From the NCBI GenBank assembly GCA_018653605.1, contig JABHYY010000018.1:29324-93323 (forward strand): a stretch of DNA of 64,000 nucleotides. Direction: 5' to 3'. The notes under the pieces were generated by a model. It made no database searches. It saw nothing but the letters and a program-made list of their open reading frames with translations, and was not told the DNA's origin. Below are positions 30,347 through 60,412 of the stretch, piece after piece. The position numbers and the translations under genes were made by a program. This stretch comes from an archaeon (lineage in GTDB: Archaea > Nanobdellota > Nanobdellia > SCGC-AAA011-G17 > GW2011-AR17). Position 1 is the stretch's first letter. Every line of letters begins with the position of its first letter.

Positions 30347-31105
30347 TTAAAAACCTGAAGAAAAAATAGTATGTTTGCTTTCATAATTTAAAATAGATCC
30401 ATCATACACTTCCCTCATTAATTCATTCAAAGACATACTCCTATAGCATTTACCACGATCATAACCATGAGGTGATACTGGTACAAATAGGTGCTTTTTT
30501 TTATCTACAACTTCTTTTGCTTTTTCTTCAGATCCTCCCAAAATCCAAAATTCTGCAGATCTTAATGTTTTTCCTTCTCTTTCTAAAAAAACTGCTCTAT
30601 CTCTATACAATTGATAAGCTTCATCTAACGAATCAAGTTCAATTAGACATTTAGCTGTATCAACTACCAACCAATCAGACAAACTATCTCCATCTTTATA
30701 ACTTAAATTTAATGCTTTTCTATAATTTGTTAAAGATGAAGCAAAATCTCCTTTCTCTCCATTCATCATCGCTGCTTTTTTTAACAAGAAAATTCTTGTC
30801 CGCAATGTATAGTCCTCACACTCAGAATTCTGCTCATATAATTCCAACTCTTGGTCTTTCATTCCATTTTCCTTGTAAATCCTACCAGCAATAAAGGGTT
30901 GTCCAATTTGTATTAAAACATTTACTGCATCATTAATCATTCCAGCCTCCAAGTAGAGGCCTGCTGCAGTATAATATTCTTCTCTATCAATATATGATAA
31001 TGCTATTTTAGAATATAAAGACTCCTTAGTAGTATCAACAATTTTTTCTTGAATTAATATTTCAAGTGTTCCTTTTATTTTATCTACATTTAACTTTTCT
31101 TCCAT
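30347..31105 (-). CDS. TPR-like helical protein, unknown function
   Basis: 252 aa; amphipathic helical repeats. Confidence 0.45.
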   Translation of the reverse strand: MEEKLNVDKIKGTLEILIQEKIVDTTKESLYSKIALSYIDREEYYTAAGLYLEAGMINDAVNVLIQIGQPFIAGRIYKENGMKDQELELYEQNSECEDYTLRTRIFLLKKAAMMNGEKGDFASSLTNYRKALNLSYKDGDSLSDWLVVDTAKCLIELDSLDEAYQLYRDRAVFLEREGKTLRSAEFWILGGSEEKAKEVVDKKKHLFVPVSPHGYDRGKCYRSMSLNELMREVYDGSILNYESKHTIFSSGF

Positions 31106-31195
31106 TTTTTAATTCCTCCTAACACTTTTGTAAGTGTTACTACTTATGAGTAATTAGACATATTTAAATACTTCCTACTACCCTTATGTAGTAGA

Positions 31196-31945
31196 ATGGA
31201 AGAATTTACAAAGAAACTACAAAGCATAGGACTAACAGAAAGAGAATCAAGAGTTTACATCTTTCTTTTACAACATCAAGAAGCAAAAACAGGAATAATT
31301 TGTTCAAAATTAAACATACCTAATTCACATATTTACAAGATATTAGAAAAATTGCTTAACAAAGGAATAGTTAGTTTTAAAATTATAAACAATGTAAAGA
31401 TATTTAGGCCAGTTAATCCAGAAAGCTTATACTCTTTATTCAAAGAAAAAGAAAGAGAACTTGAACAACAAAAAAAGGACCTAAAACAATTTATTTCTAA
31501 ATTAAAAAAGATAGAAATTAAAGATAAAAAAGAAAATGATTTCAAATATTTTGAAGGTATCAATGGAGTAAGATCTATGTTCACTGAATTCATAGAAAAT
31601 TTTACTCCTGACTCCAGCTTGCATATTGCTTCTGCACCAATAGCATATGAAAAATGGAATGCATTTCTTTTAGATTTATTTCATCCACCAAGAATTAAGA
31701 AAAATATAAACTTACAATTAATAGTTCCAGCTAAATTAAAAAAACATGCACAAGAAAGAAAAAAATTAAAACCTATTGAGATAAAATTTAGTGATGTTGA
31801 AATGGAAGCAGAGTTTGGAGTTACAGACAAGTATGTTTACTTTTTAAGTTTTGGAGAAAAACCTTATGCATTGTTAATAAAAGATAAAAATTTAGCCGAA
31901 ACACAAAAAAAAGTTTTTAATGCACTTTGGAAACAAGCAAAATAA
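31196..31945 (+). CDS. TrmB-family transcriptional regulator (paralogue 3)
   Basis: 249 aa; HTH ESRVYIFLLQHQEAKTGIICSKLNIPNSHIYKILEKLLNKGIV; TATA tatttaaata 26 bp upstream, leaderless. Confidence 0.65.
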   Translation: MEEFTKKLQSIGLTERESRVYIFLLQHQEAKTGIICSKLNIPNSHIYKILEKLLNKGIVSFKIINNVKIFRPVNPESLYSLFKEKERELEQQKKDLKQFISKLKKIEIKDKKENDFKYFEGINGVRSMFTEFIENFTPDSSLHIASAPIAYEKWNAFLLDLFHPPRIKKNINLQLIVPAKLKKHAQERKKLKPIEIKFSDVEMEAEFGVTDKYVYFLSFGEKPYALLIKDKNLAETQKKVFNALWKQAK

Positions 31946-46778: not shown

Positions 46779-47144
46779 ATGAGAACAATGCTCCATTCAA
46801 AGATTCACAGAGCTACAGTGACCGAATCAAAATTAGAATACATAGGAAGCATCACAATCGACAAAGCCCTTCTAAAAAAAGTAGATATCTGGCCAGGAGA
46901 AAAAGTTTTAGTTGTAAGTAAAACAAATGGTGCAAGACTAGAAACCTATGTGATTGAAGGAAAAACAAACTCAGGTGTAATCTGCGTCAATGGTGCAGCA
47001 TCGCATTTAATAAAAAAAGGACATGAAGTTATTATAATGACTTTCAAGCTAACAAACAAAAGAATCAAACCAAAATGTATTTTAGTTGACAAAAAAAACA
47101 AATTTGTTAAATTCCTTGTACATGATGAAAAGAGCTTGCTTTGA
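46779..47144 (+). CDS. panD: aspartate 1-decarboxylase, pyruvoyl-dependent (bacterial type)
   Basis: 121 aa; MRTMLHSKIHRATVT...YIGSITID (Gly24-Ser25 self-cleavage site), VNGAASH. Confidence 0.85.
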   Translation: MRTMLHSKIHRATVTESKLEYIGSITIDKALLKKVDIWPGEKVLVVSKTNGARLETYVIEGKTNSGVICVNGAASHLIKKGHEVIIMTFKLTNKRIKPKCILVDKKNKFVKFLVHDEKSLL

Positions 47145-47179
47145 AAAAACTTAAAAACTTCTTAGACATAGAAAACAAC

Positions 47180-48682
47180 ATGAAACTCTTAATTAAATAT
47201 TTACCAGCATCTTTAGTTCACAGTATTACAACAAGAAAAGCAAAAAATTATGAAAAATTTAAAAAATACTTTCTAAACTTAGATCCAGAAACAATTGAAA
47301 CATTAAGAGAGAAATATTTACTATACACATTTCACAAAAATGCAAAAACAATACCTGGATACAAGAAATTTTTGAAAAAGAAGAAAGTTAATTTGAAAAA
47401 AATAAAAACAATAAAAGACTTTCAAGACAAAATACCAGAAACAAACAAACACAATTATGTTTTCAAAGCAAAAAAAGACATTACAGACCTTTGTATAGAT
47501 GGCAATTATAAGAAAATTAACATGCTTGTAAAGAGTTCAGGACACTCAGGAAAACAATGTTACTGGGCAAGATCACACAAAGAAAACTCTTTTGGCCAAA
47601 CTTCACTAAGTATTGGTTTAGATGAAAACTTTAATATCTCAAGTAAAAAAACATTAATCATAAATGGTTTTGTATTAGGAAGCTGGGTTACAGGAATCAC
47701 TTTCAATGAATTCGCTTCAGCACACAGTCCAGTAATTAACACAGGTCCAAACAAAGAAGAGATTCTAGAAACAATAAAAGAAATTGGTAACCAGTTCGAA
47801 CAAATCATGGTAACAGGTTACCCACCTTTCATAAAAGATCTTGTTGACTATGGAAACAGTGTAAGGTTCCCTTGGAAAAAATACAAAATTAACTTTGGTG
47901 CAGGTGGAGAAGCATTCCCAGAAGCATGGAGAGATTATATTGCAGAAAAATCAGGAGCAAAAAAAATCAGATCTGGTTTCGGTGCATCTGACATAGGAAT
48001 TCTTGGTGGCCTTGAAACAAATGACACTGTTTTTATTAGAAGACTAACAGAAAAAAATAAAACATTAAAAAAAGAATTGTTTGGAGATTTACAAGATACA
48101 CCAATGTTGTTTCAGTACCCATTAAACCTTTACATCCATACTAACAAAAAAAAGGAACTTATATTCACAACAATTTTACCTGAAGCAGTACAACCTGCAA
48201 TAAAATATAATCTACAAGATATTGGTGGAACTGTTTCATACAAAGACATGCAAAAGATTCTAAAAAAACATAACATAGAAAGAGACTTCACATTACCTTT
48301 ACCTTTCCTATACATTGCAGGTAGAGCGGATGGCCCAGTTAAATTCCAAGCATTCATGATTTACCCAGAAAACATTGAAGAGTGTATTTACCAAAACAAA
48401 GAAATTGCAAACTCAACAACAGGAAATTTTAGATTAAAAACAAAATTAACAAAAAAATATGATGCTGTTTTACAAATAGAATTCCAACTAAAGAAAAAAT
48501 TAATGCCATCAAAAAGATTAGAACTACAATACAAAAAATTGTGCACACAAACTTTAAAGAAAGTTAATGGTGGTTACAACATCACACAAAAAAGAGTAAA
48601 GAAAAAAGCAGAACCAAAAATAATTCTATACGAACACAGCAAATACCCTTACAAATCTAAAATTAAAAATGTATATTCATAA
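47180..48682 (+). CDS. adenylate-forming enzyme, PaaK / coenzyme F390 synthetase-like ligase
   Basis: ATG 47180 preferred (supplied ORF begins at TTG 47141 overlapping panD stop); P-loop-like KSSGHSGKQ, C-terminal GRADGPVKFQAFMIYPENIEECI resembles PaaK GRxDDmlixrGvNvfPsqiE. Confidence 0.5.
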   Translation: MKLLIKYLPASLVHSITTRKAKNYEKFKKYFLNLDPETIETLREKYLLYTFHKNAKTIPGYKKFLKKKKVNLKKIKTIKDFQDKIPETNKHNYVFKAKKDITDLCIDGNYKKINMLVKSSGHSGKQCYWARSHKENSFGQTSLSIGLDENFNISSKKTLIINGFVLGSWVTGITFNEFASAHSPVINTGPNKEEILETIKEIGNQFEQIMVTGYPPFIKDLVDYGNSVRFPWKKYKINFGAGGEAFPEAWRDYIAEKSGAKKIRSGFGASDIGILGGLETNDTVFIRRLTEKNKTLKKELFGDLQDTPMLFQYPLNLYIHTNKKKELIFTTILPEAVQPAIKYNLQDIGGTVSYKDMQKILKKHNIERDFTLPLPFLYIAGRADGPVKFQAFMIYPENIEECIYQNKEIANSTTGNFRLKTKLTKKYDAVLQIEFQLKKKLMPSKRLELQYKKLCTQTLKKVNGGYNITQKRVKKKAEPKIILYEHSKYPYKSKIKNVYS

Positions 48683-49422: not shown

Positions 49423-50244
49423 TTATGATATAAACTTAAGAATTGTTCGAGACAACCTTCGAGCCCTAATCAAAGGCAACTTATGCCCTACACCTTTAAA
49501 CAAAATAAATTTAGAACCTTTAATCAAATTATGAATCTCTTTAGACAAACTAACATCAAGAATAGAATCAGTATCCCCAGCAACAACAAGCAAAGGCAAA
49601 TCCACTTTCTGTAAATCTTTAACAATCTGCTTTCTATACCTTTTCGAATACAACTGAGCTTCATGCAAAGTATAAAAAATAGTTCGCATAGGCAAGTGAT
49701 ACAACTTATCTTTATACCAACCCAACTTTGTAACATCACTGAAATCAATTTCACAAGGATAAGAATTAAACCACCCCCGCCCAACTAAAAACTTCAAAAG
49801 CTTTACAACTAAAGGATTCAAATTCAACTCATGATTTCTAGGATAAGGATATTTGTAAGTTGCTTCAACTAACACAGCATTAACAGGTAACCTATCCTTA
49901 TGAGTTATCAAATAATCCAAAAGAACAGAACCACCAAAACTATGTCCAACAAAAGTAAAATTATCAATTCCTTCAACATCCAAAACTTTCTTAACATCTT
50001 TAACAAAATTTCTCAAGTGATAAGCCTTCTCATCAAGAGGTATATCAGATAACCCATGCCCTCTAAAATCAATAGCAAGAGTAGAATAACCTTTTTTATT
50101 AAAAAACTTAACCTCTTTATTCCAAACAGTCAAATTAACACCAACACCATGAAGAAAAACCATCACAGGAAAATTAGGATTCTTCTCTCTATAATCATAA
50201 TTAATCATCACCCCATCAAAAGACTTTATTTTTTTCATATTCAA
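49423..50244 (-). CDS. alpha/beta hydrolase
   Basis: 273 aa; VMVFLHGVGVN, GHSFGG, GVGHK. Confidence 0.7.
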   Translation of the reverse strand: MNMKKIKSFDGVMINYDYREKNPNFPVMVFLHGVGVNLTVWNKEVKFFNKKGYSTLAIDFRGHGLSDIPLDEKAYHLRNFVKDVKKVLDVEGIDNFTFVGHSFGGSVLLDYLITHKDRLPVNAVLVEATYKYPYPRNHELNLNPLVVKLLKFLVGRGWFNSYPCEIDFSDVTKLGWYKDKLYHLPMRTIFYTLHEAQLYSKRYRKQIVKDLQKVDLPLLVVAGDTDSILDVSLSKEIHNLIKGSKFILFKGVGHKLPLIRARRLSRTILKFIS

Positions 50245-51671
50245 TAGCTCTTAGCAATATAAGCCAGATGTTTACCATCTTTACCACAATAAACACATTT
50301 ACCAAATTTCTTAGGTTGATTTAAAGGCATGTTTAAAATTTTTGCTCCACCAGTTTGATCTTTCATCATCTCTTCACAACCTTGATCACCACACCAGAAA
50401 GCTTTAGCTAACTTCTTATCCTTAATAGCTTTTTTCAATTCTTTAGTATCTTTAACATCAACCATATTATCCAAAGCCATTTTCTTAGATCTTTTATACA
50501 GATTATTTTGAATATCAAGTAACAACTCTTCAATCTTCTTAACCATCTCACTCTCTTTAACAAAAAGTTTTTCACCAGTATCCCTTCGAACCAAAACAAC
50601 CTGCTTTTTTTCAACATCCTTAGGTCCGACTTCAATCCTAACAGGAACACCTTTCATTTCCCATTGATTAAATTTCCAACCAGCACTATAATCTGAATCA
50701 TCAAAAATACAATCAAACTTTTTCAAATTCCTATTTAAGTCTTTACACTTTTTCAAAACATTTTTTTCTTTACCTTTAATTAAAATTGGAACCAACACAC
50801 ATTTGTTAGGAGCCACCTTTGGAGGCAAAACCAACCCTTTATCATCACCATGAGAATAAATTAAAACACCCAACATTCTAGAAGAAATTGCCCAAGTATT
50901 TTGCCAAGCATATTCTTTCTTTTCATTTTTGTTCAAAAAAGTTACATCATAAGCTTTTGCAAATTTTTGTCCATCATGATGGAATATAGGCCCTTGTATA
51001 GCTTTACCATTAGGCATAAAATGCTCCAGTGAAACAGAAAAAACAGCGCCTGCAAACTTCTCTTTTTCAGTTTTCCTTCCAATCATAGAATATATCCCCA
51101 AATAATCTTCACAAATATACCTATACATCTCTATAACCCAATCTTGTTCTTTCAAAGATTCTTTTTCAGTTGCAAATACAGTATGACCTTCATTAAACAA
51201 AAACTCTCTAGTTCTCAAAAAGGGAACAGGATGTTTAAATTCCCACCTTACCACATTACTCCACTGATTAATTTTAAGTGGCAAATCTCTCCAACTTCTA
51301 ATCCACTTTGAAAAAGAATCATACATAATAGCTTCAGAAGTAGGCCTAATAGCTAATTTTTCATTTAATTTTGTTTTACCTGCATGTGTAACCCAAGCAA
51401 CCTCTGGAGCAAAACCCTCAACATGCTCCTCTTCTTTAATCAATAAAGATTCAGGAATAAAAAGTGGAAAATAAGCATTTTTAACACTATACTTTTTTAT
51501 TCTTGCATTAACAAGATCCATTATTTTTTCCCATACAGCATAATAATAAGGCCTAAAAACAATACAACCAGAAACACCAGTATAATCTGCAAGTTCAGCT
51601 TTTTGTATAACTTGTGTATACCACTCAGAAAAATTCTCATTCTTTTTTACAGTAATACCCTTTTCAGCCAT
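50241..51671 (-). CDS. proS: prolyl-tRNA synthetase, archaeal/eukaryotic type
   Basis: 476 aa; class II motifs, C-terminal Zn-binding CVYCGK...; 4-bp overlap with upstream hydrolase. Confidence 0.85.
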   Translation of the reverse strand: MAEKGITVKKNENFSEWYTQVIQKAELADYTGVSGCIVFRPYYYAVWEKIMDLVNARIKKYSVKNAYFPLFIPESLLIKEEEHVEGFAPEVAWVTHAGKTKLNEKLAIRPTSEAIMYDSFSKWIRSWRDLPLKINQWSNVVRWEFKHPVPFLRTREFLFNEGHTVFATEKESLKEQDWVIEMYRYICEDYLGIYSMIGRKTEKEKFAGAVFSVSLEHFMPNGKAIQGPIFHHDGQKFAKAYDVTFLNKNEKKEYAWQNTWAISSRMLGVLIYSHGDDKGLVLPPKVAPNKCVLVPILIKGKEKNVLKKCKDLNRNLKKFDCIFDDSDYSAGWKFNQWEMKGVPVRIEVGPKDVEKKQVVLVRRDTGEKLFVKESEMVKKIEELLLDIQNNLYKRSKKMALDNMVDVKDTKELKKAIKDKKLAKAFWCGDQGCEEMMKDQTGGAKILNMPLNQPKKFGKCVYCGKDGKHLAYIAKSY

Positions 51672-51707: not shown

Positions 51708-52358
51708 CTATGCAACCATAATATCATCTTCAAACAACAAAGTTATCCAGTTCTGATTCAAAGCTCTATCAAACCTTACTAATTCAGATCTAAATTCAAT
51801 AGCAGCCATTCCCTTTCTTTCATAAACAGATAAAACTTGAATAAGATAAGTCCACCTTTCAATTTCATTTTTAATCACTATTCTAACATCCTTAGGAATT
51901 CCTTCCCAATGATTTAATAGTAAAGCTAAAGAATTGATACTATTCAAAAAAATATTTCTATATCTTTCACCATAACCTCTTTTATAAGATATATGCACAA
52001 CATCTTTATCTCGAACTACCCCAAATTCCCTCTTTAACATTGAAAATGCACCATACAAAATAGAATAAATATTTTGTAATTGTTTTTCAATAAGAAGAAG
52101 ATGTTTAATTGAACTTTCTCCTTGTTCAGCATCAGTAATATCAAAATTAAGTTTTAATTCAATAGCCTTTGCAATAGCAAGAATTTCTCTCTCACTTAAA
52201 ACAGAATGTCTTTTTTCTGAAATTTTATCAGCAACAATCTTAACTTTCTCCCCAAACAGATCCAATTGAACACCTTTAATTTTTTGAGAATATCTACCTG
52301 CTACATAAGCCTTAATCTCATTACTTCCAATAGCCCTAGCTTCAACAGTTTTTTTCAT
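51708..52358 (-). CDS. hypothetical protein
   Basis: 216 aa; translationally coupled to 52355..52774. Confidence 0.4.
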   Translation of the reverse strand: MKKTVEARAIGSNEIKAYVAGRYSQKIKGVQLDLFGEKVKIVADKISEKRHSVLSEREILAIAKAIELKLNFDITDAEQGESSIKHLLLIEKQLQNIYSILYGAFSMLKREFGVVRDKDVVHISYKRGYGERYRNIFLNSINSLALLLNHWEGIPKDVRIVIKNEIERWTYLIQVLSVYERKGMAAIEFRSELVRFDRALNQNWITLLFEDDIMVA

Positions 52359-52774
52359 TTTTTCTTAAACCTTTTCAAAACCTTTGCTTGCTCAGGAAAC
52401 TTTTCATCCAACTCCTCATGCACTAATTCCTCAGAAAACAAAGCACCTGATCTTGAATTAACAGGCATATGATTATAAACATGAAACAATTCATGCAAAG
52501 TAATCCCTTCAATAAATTTAATCCTAGTTTCCTTTCTCAAACCTTTAACTAAACCATTAATAATATCTTCACAATAATAAATAACATCACCACCCTTCAT
52601 TTCAGCCACAAAACAAGGTGTTTTATTCAAGTGTTTAACTAAATTCATTCCATTCAAATACTTAGAAAACTCTTTTTTTTTCATAAATAAAATAATTGGA
52701 TTTTTTATTTTGTAAGGGAACTTTTTCATTGCTTTGACAGCAATACTTTCAATCTCTTTTTCTTCCATAGACAT
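52355..52774 (-). CDS. small HExxH-motif protein (putative Zn-metallopeptidase-like)
   Basis: 139 aa; ITLHELFHV. Confidence 0.4.
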   Translation of the reverse strand: MSMEEKEIESIAVKAMKKFPYKIKNPIILFMKKKEFSKYLNGMNLVKHLNKTPCFVAEMKGGDVIYYCEDIINGLVKGLRKETRIKFIEGITLHELFHVYNHMPVNSRSGALFSEELVHEELDEKFPEQAKVLKRFKKK

Positions 52775-52816
52775 TTCAAAGCAAAGAATCTTTAAAAATA
52801 TTTGCTAACTTGAATA

Positions 52817-53014
52817 TTAATCCTTAACTTTATCAGATAACTCTTCTTCATTTTTAGGCAAAGGAGACTCTTTAGGAAGGATATAAACATAATTTGGATC
52901 TGGTCCTTGTGTAAAATAAGGTGGTCTTAAACCAAGCGCATCCTCTACAAAAAGACCTGTTCCATAATCTTCAGGAAATGCTCTATCAGGTTTAGTAATT
53001 ACTAATCTTGCCAT
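52817..53014 (-). CDS. hypothetical small protein
   Basis: 65 aa. Confidence 0.3.
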   Translation of the reverse strand: MARLVITKPDRAFPEDYGTGLFVEDALGLRPPYFTQGPDPNYVYILPKESPLPKNEEELSDKVKD

Positions 53015-53072
53015 TATAAATATTAAAATCTCAATCTTTAAAAATCTTGTCTTGATATCACTTAAGAGTAAT

Positions 53073-53098
53073 TACAAAACAAAACTTTTATAAATAGT
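53073..53098 (+). promoter_or_regulatory. BRE/TATA promoter ttacaaaacaaaacttttataaatag; near-identical copy at 55133..55159
   Basis: ~26-bp element 2 mismatches from second copy; TATA ~25 bp upstream of GH3 ATG. Confidence 0.55.
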
Positions 53099-53115
53099 TA
53101 AATCAGTAAAAAAAT

Positions 53116-54447
53116 ATGAGAAAAAGATATTTTGCAGCAACTGCAGTAGGAGTAGCTTTAACTACATTAATGGGACCATACATTCTTTTAAACAAGGTTC
53201 CAGAATTACAATCTTTAAAAAAAACTTGGTTCCCTTCTTTCAGCCTACAAGAACAATATAAATCTCCAATTGCAGCTGAAGAAAGAAATATAGATCCAAT
53301 TCAAAAAGCAGAATTACCAAACAAAAGAACTGAATTAGAACAAATAATTGCAGAACTTTTTATTACAAGATCAAACAATACTGGAGAATATACACCTGGT
53401 GGAGTTTTATTAAGAAAAGGAGAAACTAGAAAAGGACATCTCTTTGGAGAGTTTAGTTCATATGATCCAAGAAGAACACAAAGATCTGTAGAAAAAATTC
53501 TTTCAAGAGCAGAAAAAGAAGAACAAAGAGTTTTGATTTATGATGAAGGAGAAGGAGGATATGTTCTAAGAACAGGTGTAATGCCTCCAGCCCAAGAAAT
53601 TGGAGATTATTTAACAGAAGGAATTGTAGGTCCAAATATAGGACAAATAATCACTCCAAATGAATCTAAAAAAGAAAGAGCTAACCAAATAGGAACATTG
53701 TTTAATAGTTATGCAAAAGAATTAAGTGACAGAGGAATAGATTCTGTTTTTGGTCCAGTTTTAGATGTTGCATCAAAAGATTCTGAAGGAAATTTAATTA
53801 ATGAAATGCAAAGAAATTTTAGTGATAGACATTTAGTAACAAGAGAAATTGCAAAAACTTATATTACCGCAATGCACAATCATGGAATTCGTGTTGTTGG
53901 AAAACATTTTTTAACAGCAGGTTTAACAGAAGAAGGAGACATTCATGATGAAACTGTTGCTAACACAGATACAATTAGACCAAAATTATGGGCAGGACAA
54001 ACTTATAGATTATTAAGAGAAGATTTAGATGCAATCATGGTAACCCATGTAGGTAATCCTTGTGGTGAAGATAAGGGCAGGCCTTATTCTATATCTCCAA
54101 GAGCAATAGAATATTTAACTCGAGAAAGATATAATAATAACCAATTTAGAGGAATAAATTTCCAAGGCTTGGTTATAGTTGATGACATTTCAATGCAAGG
54201 TTTAATATCATATGTTCAAGAAGGAAAACTTACTGAAAAAGAGTTAAATTTAATAAGTGATACAGAAAATCTAGAAGCAAAGGCAGCAATTTTAGCACTA
54301 AACGCAGGAGCACATGTATTAATCGCAAATGAAGCTGATACAGATGAAGTTATCGAAGCTGTTGCTGATGTTGCAAGACGAGATAATAATTTCCTACAAA
54401 AAGTCATTAACGCAGAAAGAAAATATGAGGCATACATAGAACAATGA
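53116..54447 (+). CDS. glycoside hydrolase family 3 (NagZ-like beta-N-acetylhexosaminidase), membrane-anchored
   Basis: 443 aa; N-terminal TM; GH3 N-domain FGPVLDVASKDS...GIRVVGKHFLTAG...IMVTHV (cf. PVLDV...KHFPGHG...mtaH). Confidence 0.7.
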   Translation: MRKRYFAATAVGVALTTLMGPYILLNKVPELQSLKKTWFPSFSLQEQYKSPIAAEERNIDPIQKAELPNKRTELEQIIAELFITRSNNTGEYTPGGVLLRKGETRKGHLFGEFSSYDPRRTQRSVEKILSRAEKEEQRVLIYDEGEGGYVLRTGVMPPAQEIGDYLTEGIVGPNIGQIITPNESKKERANQIGTLFNSYAKELSDRGIDSVFGPVLDVASKDSEGNLINEMQRNFSDRHLVTREIAKTYITAMHNHGIRVVGKHFLTAGLTEEGDIHDETVANTDTIRPKLWAGQTYRLLREDLDAIMVTHVGNPCGEDKGRPYSISPRAIEYLTRERYNNNQFRGINFQGLVIVDDISMQGLISYVQEGKLTEKELNLISDTENLEAKAAILALNAGAHVLIANEADTDEVIEAVADVARRDNNFLQKVINAERKYEAYIEQ

Positions 54448-55112
54448 GCAAAATAAGAAAAGCTGGGAAAGGATTAGCAGGATTAGTTTCACTAGCTACT
54501 GTTGCAACAGGACTATATTTAGGTGCAACATATCTAACTATGAGAGATTATTTACATGCAGATATAGATTCTGAAATAACAAGAGTTGCAAGTTCTGGAA
54601 AACCAAAAGGTGGTTTAGTTACTATAGAAGAACATGTTAAAACAGCAAGAGATTTACTTTTATTTGGTAAAAATAGACTTCAAAGAGACGATAATCCAGG
54701 ATATGATTTAACTGTAGACAAAACAACAAACACAATGTATGTTTTTAATGGTGGAACTTTAATAAGAACAATTGATGTAGGCACTGGAGAAGAACTTATA
54801 GAAGATAAAGACAGATTTGGTCAATATGTTACACCAAATGGAGAGTATTTAGTAATAAAAGAATTTGATCAAGAAGCTTTAAGAAATAAGTTTGGTCAAG
54901 CACATGCAGATAAATACTATGCAGTTGGAATGTTACAATTATCAGGACCATGGGCACCACATATTGCAATTCATGGAACACCAGATCCAGACAAAATTGG
55001 AAAAAATAAATCTCATGGTTGTATCAATGTAGGTCTTGATGACATGGCTTGGATTATGGACAATGTTGGTATTGGCTCAACACTTAGTGTGTATATGTCT
55101 GCAACCAAATAA
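54444..55112 (+). CDS. L,D-transpeptidase (YkuD) catalytic-domain protein, membrane-anchored
   Basis: 222 aa; N-term TM; MYVFNGGTLIRTIDVGTG...TPNGEY...IAIHGTPDP...KSHGCINVGLDDMAWIMD (His/Cys catalytic motif SHGC). Confidence 0.75.
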   Translation: MSKIRKAGKGLAGLVSLATVATGLYLGATYLTMRDYLHADIDSEITRVASSGKPKGGLVTIEEHVKTARDLLLFGKNRLQRDDNPGYDLTVDKTTNTMYVFNGGTLIRTIDVGTGEELIEDKDRFGQYVTPNGEYLVIKEFDQEALRNKFGQAHADKYYAVGMLQLSGPWAPHIAIHGTPDPDKIGKNKSHGCINVGLDDMAWIMDNVGIGSTLSVYMSATK

Positions 55113-55132
55113 TTTATACTATTTCAAAGTAG

Positions 55133-55159
55133 TTACAAAACACAACTTTTATAAATCAG
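55133..55159 (+). promoter_or_regulatory. second copy of BRE/TATA promoter ttacaaaacacaacttttataaatcag
   Basis: See 53073..53098. Confidence 0.55.
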
Positions 55160-55177
55160 AAAAATGACAAATATAGT

Positions 55178-56068
55178 ATGAAAACCTTAGAATTTTCACA
55201 CAATAGAGGTAGATCACCAAGAGGGTTGATAACAGAGAGGTATAACCCACAGGACCAAGTTAGTGAGACACCAATAGTAATCCTTACTGGTTTTGGGACT
55301 ACACCTCCCCCAAAAGGAGATAGAGCTGAACTATCAGATCAGGAGCTTAGAAGAACAAGTTATTTAGGCTTGTTTCCTGGTCTGACAGCTCAATTAACAG
55401 GTCATCCAGTCCACATTACATACCATCCTGCAGTTTCGAGATTAATCACAAGAGCAGGTCTTTACAGTGCAGATGCAGCACAAATGCAATTTGAAGATTC
55501 ACCAGAAGGACATTACTTTCTACACAGCATGGCAGCATGTATAGGATATGATATACTAACAAGAGATAGAAGATATGCAGGTAAAACAGAGAAAGCAAAA
55601 AGTATCACACTTGCAGCACCCTGGACAACTGCAAGAGATGCACTAAGCCATAAAGGAAAAGTTAGAAAATTATTAGGAGTTGATTTAGAAACAGCATTCA
55701 AACTATTACAACATCTTCCAATACCATGTTGGTATCCAAATACAAACCAAACATGGCATGATGGAGATGGAGAAACAGAAAAAAGCAAACATTGGGGAGC
55801 AGCATTAATTCCAAGAGCAACTTCAGCAAGATATGCACTAACACTAGATGCAAAAAAAAAGTTAGCAGATGTAAAAGTAAGTCAAACTCCATTAGTAATT
55901 GATACAAAACAAGACAGAGTATTTAGTGAAGATAGAACAGAAATAGCAGAAATGCTTAAAGCAAGAATTACAAAGATTGAAGCAGGACACAGATTTTTCA
56001 CAGCAGAAAGAGAAAAGTTAGTACCAGTAATAGAAAGATTTCATGAACATATAGAGGCAAGCGAATGA
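55178..56068 (+). CDS. alpha/beta-hydrolase-fold protein (putative esterase/peptidase), ~40% GC
   Basis: 296 aa; IVILTGFG, LHSMAAC (variant nucleophile elbow), C-terminal D...AGHRFF (Asp/His of triad). Confidence 0.4.
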   Translation: MKTLEFSHNRGRSPRGLITERYNPQDQVSETPIVILTGFGTTPPPKGDRAELSDQELRRTSYLGLFPGLTAQLTGHPVHITYHPAVSRLITRAGLYSADAAQMQFEDSPEGHYFLHSMAACIGYDILTRDRRYAGKTEKAKSITLAAPWTTARDALSHKGKVRKLLGVDLETAFKLLQHLPIPCWYPNTNQTWHDGDGETEKSKHWGAALIPRATSARYALTLDAKKKLADVKVSQTPLVIDTKQDRVFSEDRTEIAEMLKARITKIEAGHRFFTAEREKLVPVIERFHEHIEASE

Positions 56069-57117
56069 ATAGAAGAGATTTTCTAAAAAATTTAGGATTA
56101 GGAACAGCAGCTTTATACTTAGGAGGCTGTTCAGAACAACCTGCAGACAATGATTCTACAATTCAAGAAGAACCTATTCAAGAAACAACCCAAACATTAG
56201 AAGATCTTTTAACACAAGATATTGAATTCACAGCAGATGACCTTTACAAACATTATGATGTTAATATAACACCAGAAGAATTAGTTTATCTAACAAGAGC
56301 TATTTACCACGAAGGTTCAGATGAAAAAGCTTTAGTTCAAGTAGGAACAAGATGGATCACAAACAAAGAAGGTAAAAAAGAAGAAGTTCCAGTAAAAGCT
56401 TTTGACTTAGATCAATTACAAGAATCATACAGAAGAATTGCCCATGTTATCAATAACAGATACCAATTTGACAACTGTACAGAAGAGTTTGAAAACCTTA
56501 CAGGAAAACTACAATTCAGTAAAAATGGTACTTTTGAAAGTATCCTAAGAGAATGTAAATCAATTGATGAAGAAGGTAGACCAAGAGATTGTCAATTTAG
56601 TTGTACACATTTTCATTACAAAGATTTCCAAACAGCAGAAAAAGAAGGAGAATACAGTTTGGCTACAGGAGATATCAATTCAGATAGAGCTCTATTAGCA
56701 TACAGAGCACTCTTAGAAGTTCTGACAGGAGAACATCAAGATCCAACAGGCAGAGCACTATGGTATAAAAATAAAAAATTAGCAGAAAAACAAAAAGGAA
56801 AACCCATTAAATGGAATGGAGAAGAAGCATTTGCAACAGAAACAATAGAATGTTCTGAGATTGAAAAGATACCAAGTACATCAATTGCAAAAAGGATTGA
56901 ACAAAGAGATCCAAAAATTACATGTAGAGCTGACCAGTCATTTAGGATGAAATCTACAAATAAATTTCTAAGCCATGATTACTACACTGTTGAAGCAGAA
57001 GAAAGAAAAGAAATGCTTTATGACAGTGGAAATGACACAGGCCATACTTACAAAAATGGTAAATGGTTACCAAGGCAAAGTTTTAGTAAAAAAGTACCAG
57101 CACACCTTCGTAAGTAA
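56065..57117 (+). CDS. Tat-signal lipoprotein with SleB/CwlJ-like cell-wall hydrolase domain
   Basis: 350 aa; MNRRDFLKNLGLGTAALYLGGCSE (twin-Arg + lipobox); LTRAIYHEGSDE...VINNRYQ...QFS...DPTGRALWYKN resemble Hydrolase_2 (SleB) conserved positions. Confidence 0.5.
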   Translation: MNRRDFLKNLGLGTAALYLGGCSEQPADNDSTIQEEPIQETTQTLEDLLTQDIEFTADDLYKHYDVNITPEELVYLTRAIYHEGSDEKALVQVGTRWITNKEGKKEEVPVKAFDLDQLQESYRRIAHVINNRYQFDNCTEEFENLTGKLQFSKNGTFESILRECKSIDEEGRPRDCQFSCTHFHYKDFQTAEKEGEYSLATGDINSDRALLAYRALLEVLTGEHQDPTGRALWYKNKKLAEKQKGKPIKWNGEEAFATETIECSEIEKIPSTSIAKRIEQRDPKITCRADQSFRMKSTNKFLSHDYYTVEAEERKEMLYDSGNDTGHTYKNGKWLPRQSFSKKVPAHLRK

Positions 57118-57351
57118 ATTTTATTAACTTCTACATCTAAATATTCTCCATGGAATGTAAAAAAGAACAAAACCTAAAGCATTGCAACTGCACCTATTCC
57201 TGCTCAAAAAAAGGGATCTGTTGTGAGTGCATAGCCTACCACAGAGCAAGGAGAGAGCTCCCTGCATGCTATTTTAGCAAAGAAAAGGAAGCAACCTATA
57301 ACAGAGGTATGGATAACCTTTAATAACATCAAAATCCATCAAAAACACCAT

Positions 57352-57440
57352 GGGCCTATGATGTAATCTGGATAGCATATCTGGCTTCGGATTGAAAAAG
57401 GAGATACCAGAATATGGGGGTTCAAATCCTCCTAGGCCCA
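57352..57440 (+). tRNA. tRNA-Arg (anticodon UCG) with ~15-nt canonical (37/38) intron at ~57391..57405
   Basis: GGGCCUA-UG-AUGU-AAUCUGGAUA-GCAU-A-UCUGG-CUUCGG[AUUGAAAAAGGAGAU]A-CCAGA-AUAU-GGGGG-UUCAAAU-CCUCC-UAGGCCC-A. Confidence 0.65.
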
Positions 57441-57891
57441 TTATTATATTCAGGTGGTTGTAAACCACCTCTCATTTGATCAAACTTTGAAAAAGTTTGG
57501 TTTGAATCAGTCCTAGGCCCATATTTTCACCAAAAATCAGCTCAGACCCAACATGGCAGTCAAAACCAAGAATTTCCCTACAAAAGACCTTTCAAAACCA
57601 TTAAATTCTATCAATACAAGCCCTGTACCCCAAAACCACAAATTATATAAATAAGCACTAGTTTTATAAAAGTAAGCCCGGCATGAGAATACTCAATGGA
57701 GTACGGCAACGGCCAACACAATGAGCTTGGGAGTTAGTGTTACGGGCAATATCATAATACAAACACGAGTAAAAGATAATCATATTTACTAACATTCATT
57801 TCGGTTTCGAGAGTTAGAGTGTAAAACGGTTGGGAGAGGGAGAATCGTTTTACCTAATAGGAATTTCTTTACTTGTAGGAGGAAAATAAAA

Positions 57892-60139: not shown

Positions 60140-60412
60140 TATAGCAGGCATGTCAAGGATGAGTACCAAGCCAAGTAACCAGTTAACCCCAGAACTTCCT
60201 CAGCTCTGCGAACCCACAAGCGCCAGTGAAAGTGTTTAGGGCTGCTACATTCCTGTCCTGACCCGATTCACAAAACCACCAACCCAGTAGGACAAAGCTT
60301 CAACGTCCATTCTGAGACCAGCACCTAACAAGATACCGCTCCAAGACTTCAGTCCCTCATAAGTCGATTTAGGGTAACAGGTGACGACTAACCACCCACC
60401 TAGCCTGCCACT
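60140..60412 (-). ncRNA. signal recognition particle RNA (7S/SRP RNA), archaeal type
   Basis: GC-rich (~50%) non-coding stretch; minus strand carries helix-8-like GUCAGGACAGGAAUGUAGCAGCC (cf. GUCAGGxCCGGAAGGAAGCAGCC); 5' GCAGGC pairs with 3' GCCUGC. Confidence 0.5.

Follow-up and report, generated by a model that had tools for sequence, protein, structure and literature searches.

Murein-type enzymes behind a duplicated promoter: a locus for probable processing of bacterial peptidoglycan in a marine DPANN-type archaeon

INTRODUCTION

Pacearchaeota and Woesearchaeota have been proposed to degrade bacterial murein by means of GH23 transglycosylases and a muramoyl-tetrapeptide carboxypeptidase (PMC8204110, PMC9723730, PMC10936187, PMC11537232), and archaeal peptidoglycan hydrolases, which are prominent in Nanoarchaeota, kill bacteria (PMC12352652). 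The survey that described these hydrolases required a catalytic domain together with a cell-wall-binding domain, and 35% of the signal-bearing proteins use the twin-arginine translocation (Tat) pathway (PMC12352652). On the question of whether the abundant uncultured DPANN archaea of the Woesearchaeota/Pacearchaeota type rely on bacteria or on other archaea, the genomic argument for bacteria has so far come mainly from GH23 transglycosylase domains. Here, we describe a locus at positions 53068 to 57117 of a 64-kb stretch of archaeal DNA (contig JABHYY010000018.1; the whole stretch is called the window) that adds three murein-type families to this argument: a GH3 glycosidase of the NagZ type (GH3), an enzyme with the YkuD, or L,D-transpeptidase, fold (YkuD), and a SleB/CwlJ-like lipoprotein (gene 4). 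A fourth gene (gene 3) encodes an alpha/beta-hydrolase-fold protein.

Peptidoglycan degradation by these archaea is already a published hypothesis; the locus fits it and overturns nothing. The literature searched, an incomplete library, yielded no account of a SleB-like lipoprotein or of a GH3-YkuD pair from DPANN archaea.

PREDICTED ROLE OF THE LOCUS

The locus belongs natively to a marine archaeon of the DPANN type (Woesearchaeota/Nanoarchaeota-like) and is read here as two short operons, in each of which the first cistron would be leaderless and the second is tightly coupled to it. We propose, with a probability of roughly 0.6, that its surface-anchored enzymes process bacterial peptidoglycan. 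In the first operon, GH3 would be a beta-N-acetylglucosaminidase of the NagZ type and YkuD an L,D-peptidase or transpeptidase, both anchored in the membrane. The second would supply an alpha/beta-hydrolase that stays in the cytoplasm and a SleB/CwlJ-like hydrolase of glycan strands that is exported by Tat and carries a lipid anchor. The three enzymes exposed at the archaeal surface would act on bacterial peptidoglycan, where the SleB-like enzyme would open glycan strands, GH3 would take off terminal N-acetylglucosamine (GlcNAc), and YkuD would trim or cleave stem peptides at L,D bonds. The substrate could be the wall of a bacterial partner or detrital muropeptides, and a cell of reduced metabolism may gain amino sugars and amino acids, access to its host, or both. 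A shared promoter/operator of ~40 nucleotides (nt) would coregulate the two operons and may double as a recombination site for the gain or loss of GH3-YkuD. Attack on, or scavenging from, bacterial walls had been suggested in a preliminary description of this DNA, and among the readings weighed here, it is the best-supported role.

MUREIN-TYPE ENZYME FAMILIES

The same description had placed murein-type enzymes in a DPANN-like archaeon, and the family assignments agree. GH3 matches PF00933 (Glyco_hydro_3) at 86.1 bits (gathering score, 27), and all eight matches in a PDB sequence search are NagZ-type beta-N-acetylhexosaminidases. On the Salmonella and mycobacterial NagZ structures, KHFLTAGLTEEGDIH aligns onto KHFPGHG...DSH and DDISM aligns onto DDLSM. 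Both NagZ-type motifs are present, namely, K263-H264...D275-I-H277, with the acid/base Asp-His dyad, and D356-D357-I-S-M, with the nucleophile Asp; across 16 GH3 homologues, H277 and D356 are invariant, and D275 is replaced by Asn in two. The Pfam score and these motifs bear out the NagZ-like assignment made earlier. The N terminus is basic and is followed by a stretch that is hydrophobic by hydropathy (residues 7 to 25), a predicted signal-anchor helix that would place the catalytic domain on the outer side of the membrane. In Bacillus subtilis, an extracellular NagZ (YbbD)/AmiE pathway rescues muropeptides.

YkuD matches PF03734 at 68.1 bits (gathering score, 23.4), and its best PDB match is the L,D-transpeptidase 4XVO. 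L,D-Transpeptidases (Ldts) carry the active-site motif H-X(14-17)-[S/T]-H-G-C-h-N, which is intact in this protein (H173-X16-S190-H191-G192-C193-I194-N195); the Pfam score together with this HX16SHGCIN motif confirms the domain named in the preliminary description. In seven DPANN orthologues with 32 to 94% identity, H173, H177, G192, and C193 are invariant. NCBIfam matches are weak and partial, the best being to ElsL (26 bits versus 270), with Ldt models at 14 to 18 bits. The protein has an N-terminal hydrophobic anchor (residues 10 to 28) and no peptidoglycan-binding domain.

Gene 4 encodes, in order, a Tat signal with a lipobox, an acidic linker, a divergent Hydrolase_2 domain, and a C-terminal extension of ~100 amino acids (aa). 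A profile search of 1.8 billion representatives recovered 56 homologues, of which 54 were aligned with the window protein. Matches to PF07486 (Hydrolase_2) were obtained for 44 of these 55 sequences, the best at 1.4e-11, with no rival catalytic family, and the family profile matches the SleB structures 4F55 (E = 3e-4) and 4FET (E = 7e-4). Glu83, Asn131-Arg132, and DPTGRALWYKN align with the catalytic Glu, NR, and DPTGNALYYFNP motifs of SleB. More specifically, E83 (in IYHEGSD) falls on the Glu of SleB 'vYGEsrgep', and E83 and R132 are the only invariant columns across the 55 sequences. The nearest named relatives are labeled '[archaeon]' and Candidatus Woesearchaeota, and a PDB sequence search with a shallow gene 4 profile returned nothing meaningful. 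The SleB/CwlJ-like domain proposed earlier therefore stands as homology found through profile searches, although Pfam alone leaves it below threshold.

The export signal of gene 4 is recognized by the TIGR01409 Tat-signal model (19.2 bits; cutoff, 16.7), and the Pfam TAT_signal model stays under its threshold (12.9 bits versus 22.7). RRDFLK, a hydrophobic region (h-region), and the lipobox L-G-G-C22 are all in place, and R3, R4, and C22 are invariant in four close homologues. The RRDFLK...LGGCS Tat-lipobox of the preliminary description is real; its remark that such a signal is unusual for a DPANN-like genome is not supported, since 35% of the archaeal peptidoglycan hydrolases with a signal peptide use Tat (PMC12352652). 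Also, six cysteines are invariant in close gene 4 homologues (C138, C164, C176, C180, C263, and C287), and a CQFSCTHFH cluster among the conserved cysteines lies within the hydrolase domain. Roles for these cysteines in disulfide formation or metal binding are possible and might account for the Tat route.

Gene 3 has no Pfam or NCBIfam match, and a PDB sequence search with a shallow profile gave nothing meaningful. Its AlphaFold2 (AF2) model is of moderate quality (pLDDT, 58; pTM, 0.65), and the top 50 PDB matches listed by Foldseek for this model are all alpha/beta hydrolases (E, ~3.5e-7 to 1e-5; TM score, 0.39 to 0.51). S117 (in HSMA), D246, and H271, which are invariant and form a putative triad, come after strands 111-116, 239-243, and 263-267 of the model, respectively, and a 39%-identical homologue carries a weak PF06821 Ser_hydrolase match. 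Thus, the alpha/beta-hydrolase call made earlier holds for the modeled fold and the invariant Ser-Asp-His residues but not for any family profile. Gene 3 lacks a signal peptide and is therefore predicted to be cytoplasmic. That its translation is coupled to that of gene 4 points to related functions, such as the processing of imported fragments.

All four open reading frames (ORFs) run in the same direction at the positions first reported (Table 1). Moreover, the 4-bp overlaps claimed at 54444 and 56065 are there: both internal junctions, GH3/YkuD and gene 3/gene 4, read ATGA. The second cistrons are preceded by GAGG, which in gene 4 is Shine-Dalgarno-like and lies 7 nt upstream of the start. 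Downstream, a cysteine-rich ORF of 57 aa at 57150-57323 (+), uncalled in the public annotations seen, matches Pfam DUF6485 at 29.5 bits (gathering score, 24).

Table 1. Coordinates of genes and promoters at the locus, as positions in the window
Feature	Position	Strand	Length or core	Basis
GH3 glycosidase, NagZ type	53116..54447	+	443 aa	Pfam GH3, PDB matches, motifs
YkuD (L,D-transpeptidase fold) enzyme	54444..55112	+	222 aa	Pfam YkuD, active-site motif
Gene 3, alpha/beta-hydrolase-fold protein	55178..56068	+	296 aa	Predicted structure and invariant triad
Gene 4, Tat-signal lipoprotein, SleB/CwlJ-like	56065..57117	+	350 aa	Profile searches, TIGR01409
Promoter P1	53057..53095	+	24-nt core, 53072-53095	
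Promoter P2, second copy of the element	55118..55156	+	24-nt core, 55133-55156	

A SHARED PROMOTER OF THE GENOME'S USUAL TYPE

The cores of P1 and P2 are copies of a 24-nt repeat, TTACAAAACA[A/C]AACTTTTATAAAT, that differ at one base. With up to three mismatches allowed, these are its only two matches in the 64 kb, and none occurred in 100 shuffles. The near-identical archaeal elements described earlier, each with a B recognition element (BRE) and a TATA box, are borne out, except that the first starts at 53072 rather than 53073 (the second starts at 55133). The elements of P1 are a dyad of imperfect symmetry (ATCACTTAAGAGT), a palindrome (GTAATTAC), an A-rich stretch that resembles a BRE, and a TATA box (TTTTATAAAT). 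In P1, the distance from the start of the TATA box to the GH3 ATG is 29 nt, which implies a leaderless transcript; in P2, the distance to the gene 3 ATG is 30 nt. Because a TTTAWAWA box stands ~30 nt before the ATG in many window genes, leaderless transcription appears to be the usual arrangement in this genome, and P1 and P2 conform to it.

When seven promoter copies from four lineages were aligned, ~40 nt proved to be conserved. They take in the imperfect ACT...AGT dyad, a palindrome of the form GTRRYTAC, the BRE region with its many A residues, and the TATA box; divergence is seen in the 20 nt that separate the TATA box from the ATG. The promoter core is conserved in the related loci L009, L022, and L006. 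In the three lineages that carry both promoters, orthologous copies are more alike than paralogous ones, which argues that the duplication is old and that both copies have been kept by selection. The shared ~40-nt sequence is consistent with a common operator, as judged from sequence conservation. A wider regulon was considered and rejected, since, apart from P1 and P2, truncated forms of the motif show no enrichment in the window.

A separate palindrome, ACTACTTATGAGTAAT, lies at 31139-31154 between the divergent genes 30347-31105 (-) and 31196-31945 (+), the latter of which carries a TrmB-type helix-turn-helix (HTH). By eye, it agrees at 14 of 18 positions with the dyad and palindrome found at 53057-53074, upstream of P1. 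A sugar-responsive regulator may have its operator here, with the qualification that the motif count is not above chance and the match is not statistically compelling.

COMPOSITION, HOST, AND CONTIG INTEGRITY

The locus owed its striking look to the claim that it is a compositionally distinct island of ~40% GC between flanks of 30 to 33%, and this claim is untrue. Windowed GC content and codon usage are both native. The GC content of 53068-57117 is 33.3%, compared with 30.9% for the left flank, 34.0% for the right flank, and 32.4% for the 64-kb window, and 22.5% of all 4,050-bp windows have a GC content at least as high. By gene, the values are 32.1% (GH3), 33.2% (YkuD), 37.5% (gene 3), and 33.0% (gene 4). 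Only gene 3 is mildly GC rich (z = 1.75), and a value of 41% in a 400-bp window is reached only inside it; the excess is due to codon positions 1 and 2, i.e., to amino acid content. GC content at third codon positions (GC3) is 0.11 to 0.17 in the four genes, at or below the genome mean of 0.216, and their codon-usage log-scores (-0.74 to -0.85) fall within the range of the other 56 genes.

An archaeal signal recognition particle (SRP) RNA at 60142-60410 and an intron-containing tRNA-Arg at 57351-57441 confirm the archaeal host. The window also encodes an archaeal DnaG-type primase, form III RuBisCO, AMP phosphorylase, and an IF-2B-type isomerase (ribose-1,5-bisphosphate isomerase); this nucleotide-salvage set is typical of Pacearchaeota/Woesearchaeota, and the context is that of a DPANN scavenger. 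Identical or near-identical proteins occur in Tara mesopelagic 0.1- to 0.22-μm fractions.

One alternative is that the locus is a recent bacterial island or the product of a chimeric assembly. The three enzyme families are mainly bacterial, a tRNA-Arg gene lies ~230 bp downstream, and a Bacteroidota contig with a TonB-dependent receptor encodes a 35%-identical member of the same GH3 subfamily, which makes an old interdomain transfer plausible. Nevertheless, this alternative is effectively refuted. The exact gene 4 protein is found on 23 contigs (JGI, ENA, Logan, and NCBI assemblies), and the places examined among them have the same neighbors on either side, so that assembly chimerism can be dismissed. 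Both junctions lie within more than 20 independent contigs, and synteny is kept in four lineages. In addition to the native GC content, GC3, and codon usage, the promoters are archaeal, of the genome's normal type and geometry. No integrase or transposase lies around the locus, and scans of IMG/VR with gene 4 and GH3 alignments found no virus-borne relatives. As the preliminary description had argued, the locus is a genuine part of the genome and no contamination. Its suggestion of acquired genes fares less well as far as a recent event is concerned: an integrase is missing, codons are used as elsewhere in the genome, and the nearest relatives found or named for GH3, YkuD, and Hydrolase_2 belong to other DPANN-type archaea. 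Two more specific candidates were rejected as well, namely, a virus-borne cassette, on the basis of the IMG/VR scans, and integration at the tRNA-Arg gene, given that the whole arrangement is syntenic in four lineages and has no integrase.

Several features of the wider window were noted in passing. Across positions 1-64000, the third-codon A frequency (A3) is ~0.5 in + genes and the T frequency (T3) is ~0.55 in - genes, and the + strand is A rich throughout regardless of gene direction (AT skew, +0.1 to +0.35); this strong, strand-wide mutational asymmetry suggests that the whole window lies on one replichore. The noncoding segment 57600-57891, upstream of dnaG, holds two TATA-like boxes and is ~88% identical to L006 and L009, as conserved as coding sequence. 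A noncoding RNA was rejected there, with no Rfam match and no excess folding energy (z = -0.33). A 513-aa protein at 47141-48682 was considered as a cell-wall-binding neighbor, but its weak PlyCB match (E = 0.0013, below cutoff) was judged spurious because the sequence resembles, by eye, an adenylate-forming enzyme.

DISTRIBUTION, INDEL, AND SELECTION

All four genes occupy the same genomic position in L009-L011 (Tara, ENA) and in L022/L023 (JGI). L006 (GCA_974502265.1) has syntenic flanks and carries genes 3 and 4 only; by BLASTN, it lacks window positions 52803-55123, which contain a 65-aa ORF, P1, and GH3-YkuD. Its single promoter is P1-like upstream of the core and P2-like downstream of it, and the promoter repeat forms the right-hand boundary of the absent segment. 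The missing stretch and the one hybrid promoter indicate that GH3-YkuD is an indel bounded by the promoter repeat. This pattern is the signature expected of recombination across a direct repeat, which on sequence grounds could have been either a deletion or a single-crossover insertion of a core-carrying circle. Deletion is the more parsimonious, because three of four lineages carry the pair and L006 is close to L009.

The proximity of L006 and L009 is seen in their prolyl-tRNA synthetases (ProRS), which are 93% identical. The ProRS of L022 (1595-3031) is only 42% identical to that of the window (50241-51671), compared with 70 to 83% for adjacent genes; such mosaic relationships imply frequent recombination or gene replacement. 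A variable hotspot (52803-53056) lies directly left of P1, and its 65-aa ORF (52817-53014, -) is absent from L006, L009, and L022. The promoter of this ORF (atttttaaagatt) is a copy of the one that serves the next gene (52355-52774), and the hotspot is thus the second instance here in which a gained gene comes with a promoter duplication. At the same hotspot, L009 carries an unrelated insert of ~2 kb with a 513-aa and a 137-aa gene; the 513-aa gene, inserted beside GH3, is unrelated to the 513-aa protein at 47141-48682 of the window.

Their distribution shows that the four genes do not form a single unit. GH3 and YkuD are separable from the rest and widespread in DPANN archaea: they are also adjacent in five more archaeal loci, among them the Woesearchaeota-type contigs L015, L017, and L018 as well as L024, each time in a different neighborhood, and the Nanoarchaeota contig L016 carries GH3 alone. 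Genes 3 and 4, in contrast, are confined to a narrow clade, except that a different archaeon has a lone gene 3 homologue with 39% identity. An extended conserved operon in distant lineages was rejected, since two flanking genes, the one that follows YkuD in L015 and the 304-aa one that precedes GH3 in L024, are both unrelated to genes 3 and 4.

Between the window and L009, synonymous divergence (dS) is 0.20 for GH3 and 0.12 for YkuD, compared with 0.35 to 0.70 for nine neighboring genes. This difference suggests that the cassette was shared more recently, while very low GC3 could also depress dS. The ratio of nonsynonymous to synonymous divergence (dN/dS) is 0.20 to 0.46 in the four genes (GH3, 0.20; genes 3 and 4, 0.36 to 0.46), and all four are under purifying selection. 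GH3 and YkuD rank with the best-conserved genes in the region, at 92 to 94% identity compared with 79% for ProRS.

These rates bear on a second alternative, in which the enzymes would be contact-dependent antibacterial weapons that kill competitors rather than secure nutrients or host access. In its favor, GH3-YkuD evolves more slowly than genes 3 and 4, bacteria are killed by archaeal peptidoglycan hydrolases that carry Sec or Tat signals (PMC12352652), and predatory 'vampiristic' Woesearchaeota have been proposed (PMC9723730). We nevertheless judge weaponry to be unlikely: an exo-acting NagZ-type glycosidase and a small YkuD protein are of trimming or recycling types and not lytic, the enzymes are anchored rather than released, and no toxin, immunity, or secretion-system genes lie nearby. 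This alternative also overlaps with the processing of bacterial peptidoglycan favored here, such that the two are inseparable from sequence alone.

The wide conservation of the GH3-YkuD pair in DPANN genomes, and the strong constraint on it, would also suit a role in the archaeon's own envelope, where the enzymes would act on a GlcNAc glycan, S-layer N-glycans, or an undescribed peptide-cross-linked polymer for growth, division, or turnover. The three exposed enzymes are tethered to the membrane of the producer and not freely secreted, none has a murein-binding module, and a PIG-L deacetylase and glycosyltransferases are encoded elsewhere in the window. However, neither the 64-kb window nor the related loci that were fetched contain a murein- or pseudomurein-type synthesis gene, and DPANN envelopes are not known to contain L,D-peptide bonds or N-acetylmuramic acid (MurNAc), on which YkuD and SleB-type enzymes act. 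Moreover, L006 lost, or never had, the pair at this locus, and so the pair is either dispensable there or located elsewhere. On balance, we regard action on the archaeon's own envelope as rather improbable.

More speculatively, the GH3-YkuD pair might not serve scavenging at all but belong to the core envelope machinery of DPANN archaea, through wall building or covalent host attachment, which we consider very improbable. The pair could build or remodel an undescribed GlcNAc- and peptide-containing polymer of the archaeon itself. Alternatively, YkuD could, through transpeptidase chemistry, couple the archaeal surface covalently to the peptidoglycan stem peptides of a bacterial host, by analogy with the Ldts of Escherichia coli, which attach Braun's lipoprotein. 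The 92 to 94% identity of the pair relative to the 79% of ProRS, the invariance of catalytic residues over 32 to 94% identity, and the adjacency kept in distant lineages are compatible with either option. Covalent coupling, if true, would amount to a mechanism of interdomain attachment.

Some observations also weigh against the processing of bacterial peptidoglycan as we propose it. The murein-type assignments rest on low-identity homology to bacterial families. GH3 scores 63.8 bits against the NagZ equivalog NF003740, far under the cutoff of 207, and so is a NagZ-like protein and not a NagZ orthologue; gene 4 itself reaches only 21.1 bits with PF07486 (gathering score, 27), over profile positions 35-81 of 100, and its AF2 model, made from a four-sequence alignment, is unusable (mean pLDDT, 35.8). 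A Pfam scan recognized a peptidoglycan-binding domain in none of the locus proteins. The 64-kb window shows no amino-sugar catabolism genes and no muropeptide transporter, and neither the window nor the fetched loci show TatA/TatC translocase or lipoprotein-maturation genes. Our proposal does not account for gene 3. Finally, the high conservation of GH3 and YkuD is more typical of housekeeping enzymes than of a weapon in an arms race.

COMPARISON WITH KNOWN SYSTEMS

The locus offers practical openings. Its proteins are small, anchored, and easily expressed, which makes direct tests on sacculi and muropeptides possible, and the conserved GH3-YkuD pair, recurring in distant lineages, could serve as a marker in surveys of the trait. 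The promoter observation is of more interest than the preliminary description stated. The repeat would be an example of an archaeal promoter/operator at which a gene cassette also has its recombination boundary.

Three described systems and one enzyme class lend themselves to comparison. First, bacterial peptidoglycan recycling by NagZ together with the L,D-carboxypeptidase LdcA or the YkuD-fold ElsL (NCBIfam NF040925) likewise pairs a GlcNAc-removing enzyme with a stem-peptide-trimming enzyme, and it shares the NagZ-type KHF...D-x-H and DDxSM motifs with the locus. However, the locus proteins score far under the equivalog cutoffs (63.8 versus 207 and 26 versus 270 bits). They are also N-terminally anchored and predicted to be extracytoplasmic, and the host archaeon has no known murein to recycle.

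Second, the SleB/CwlJ spore-cortex lytic enzymes (4F55 and 4FET) have in common with gene 4 the catalytic Glu (xYxE), NR, and DPTGxALxYxN motifs. In contrast to them, gene 4 falls under the Pfam gathering score and has insertions inside the domain, six conserved cysteines, and a C-terminal extension of ~100 aa. It carries a Tat signal and lipobox where SleB has a peptidoglycan-binding domain, and it has no spore context.

Third, the published DPANN GH23 proteins come from the same group of organisms, are likewise of an extracytoplasmic peptidoglycan-cleaving type, and have the same proposed role, namely, to bind or degrade bacterial walls. The locus differs from them in its families (GH3, YkuD, and Hydrolase_2) and in its arrangement as two promoter-sharing operons; moreover, its proteins are small, single-domain, and membrane or lipid anchored, unlike the giant multidomain GH23 proteins.

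Finally, the archaeal bacteria-killing hydrolases (PMC12352652) share with the locus their archaeal origin, Sec or Tat export, prominence in Nanoarchaeota, and an inferred target in bacterial murein. Their catalytic families are different, and since the locus proteins have no binding domain, they would not be counted in that survey.

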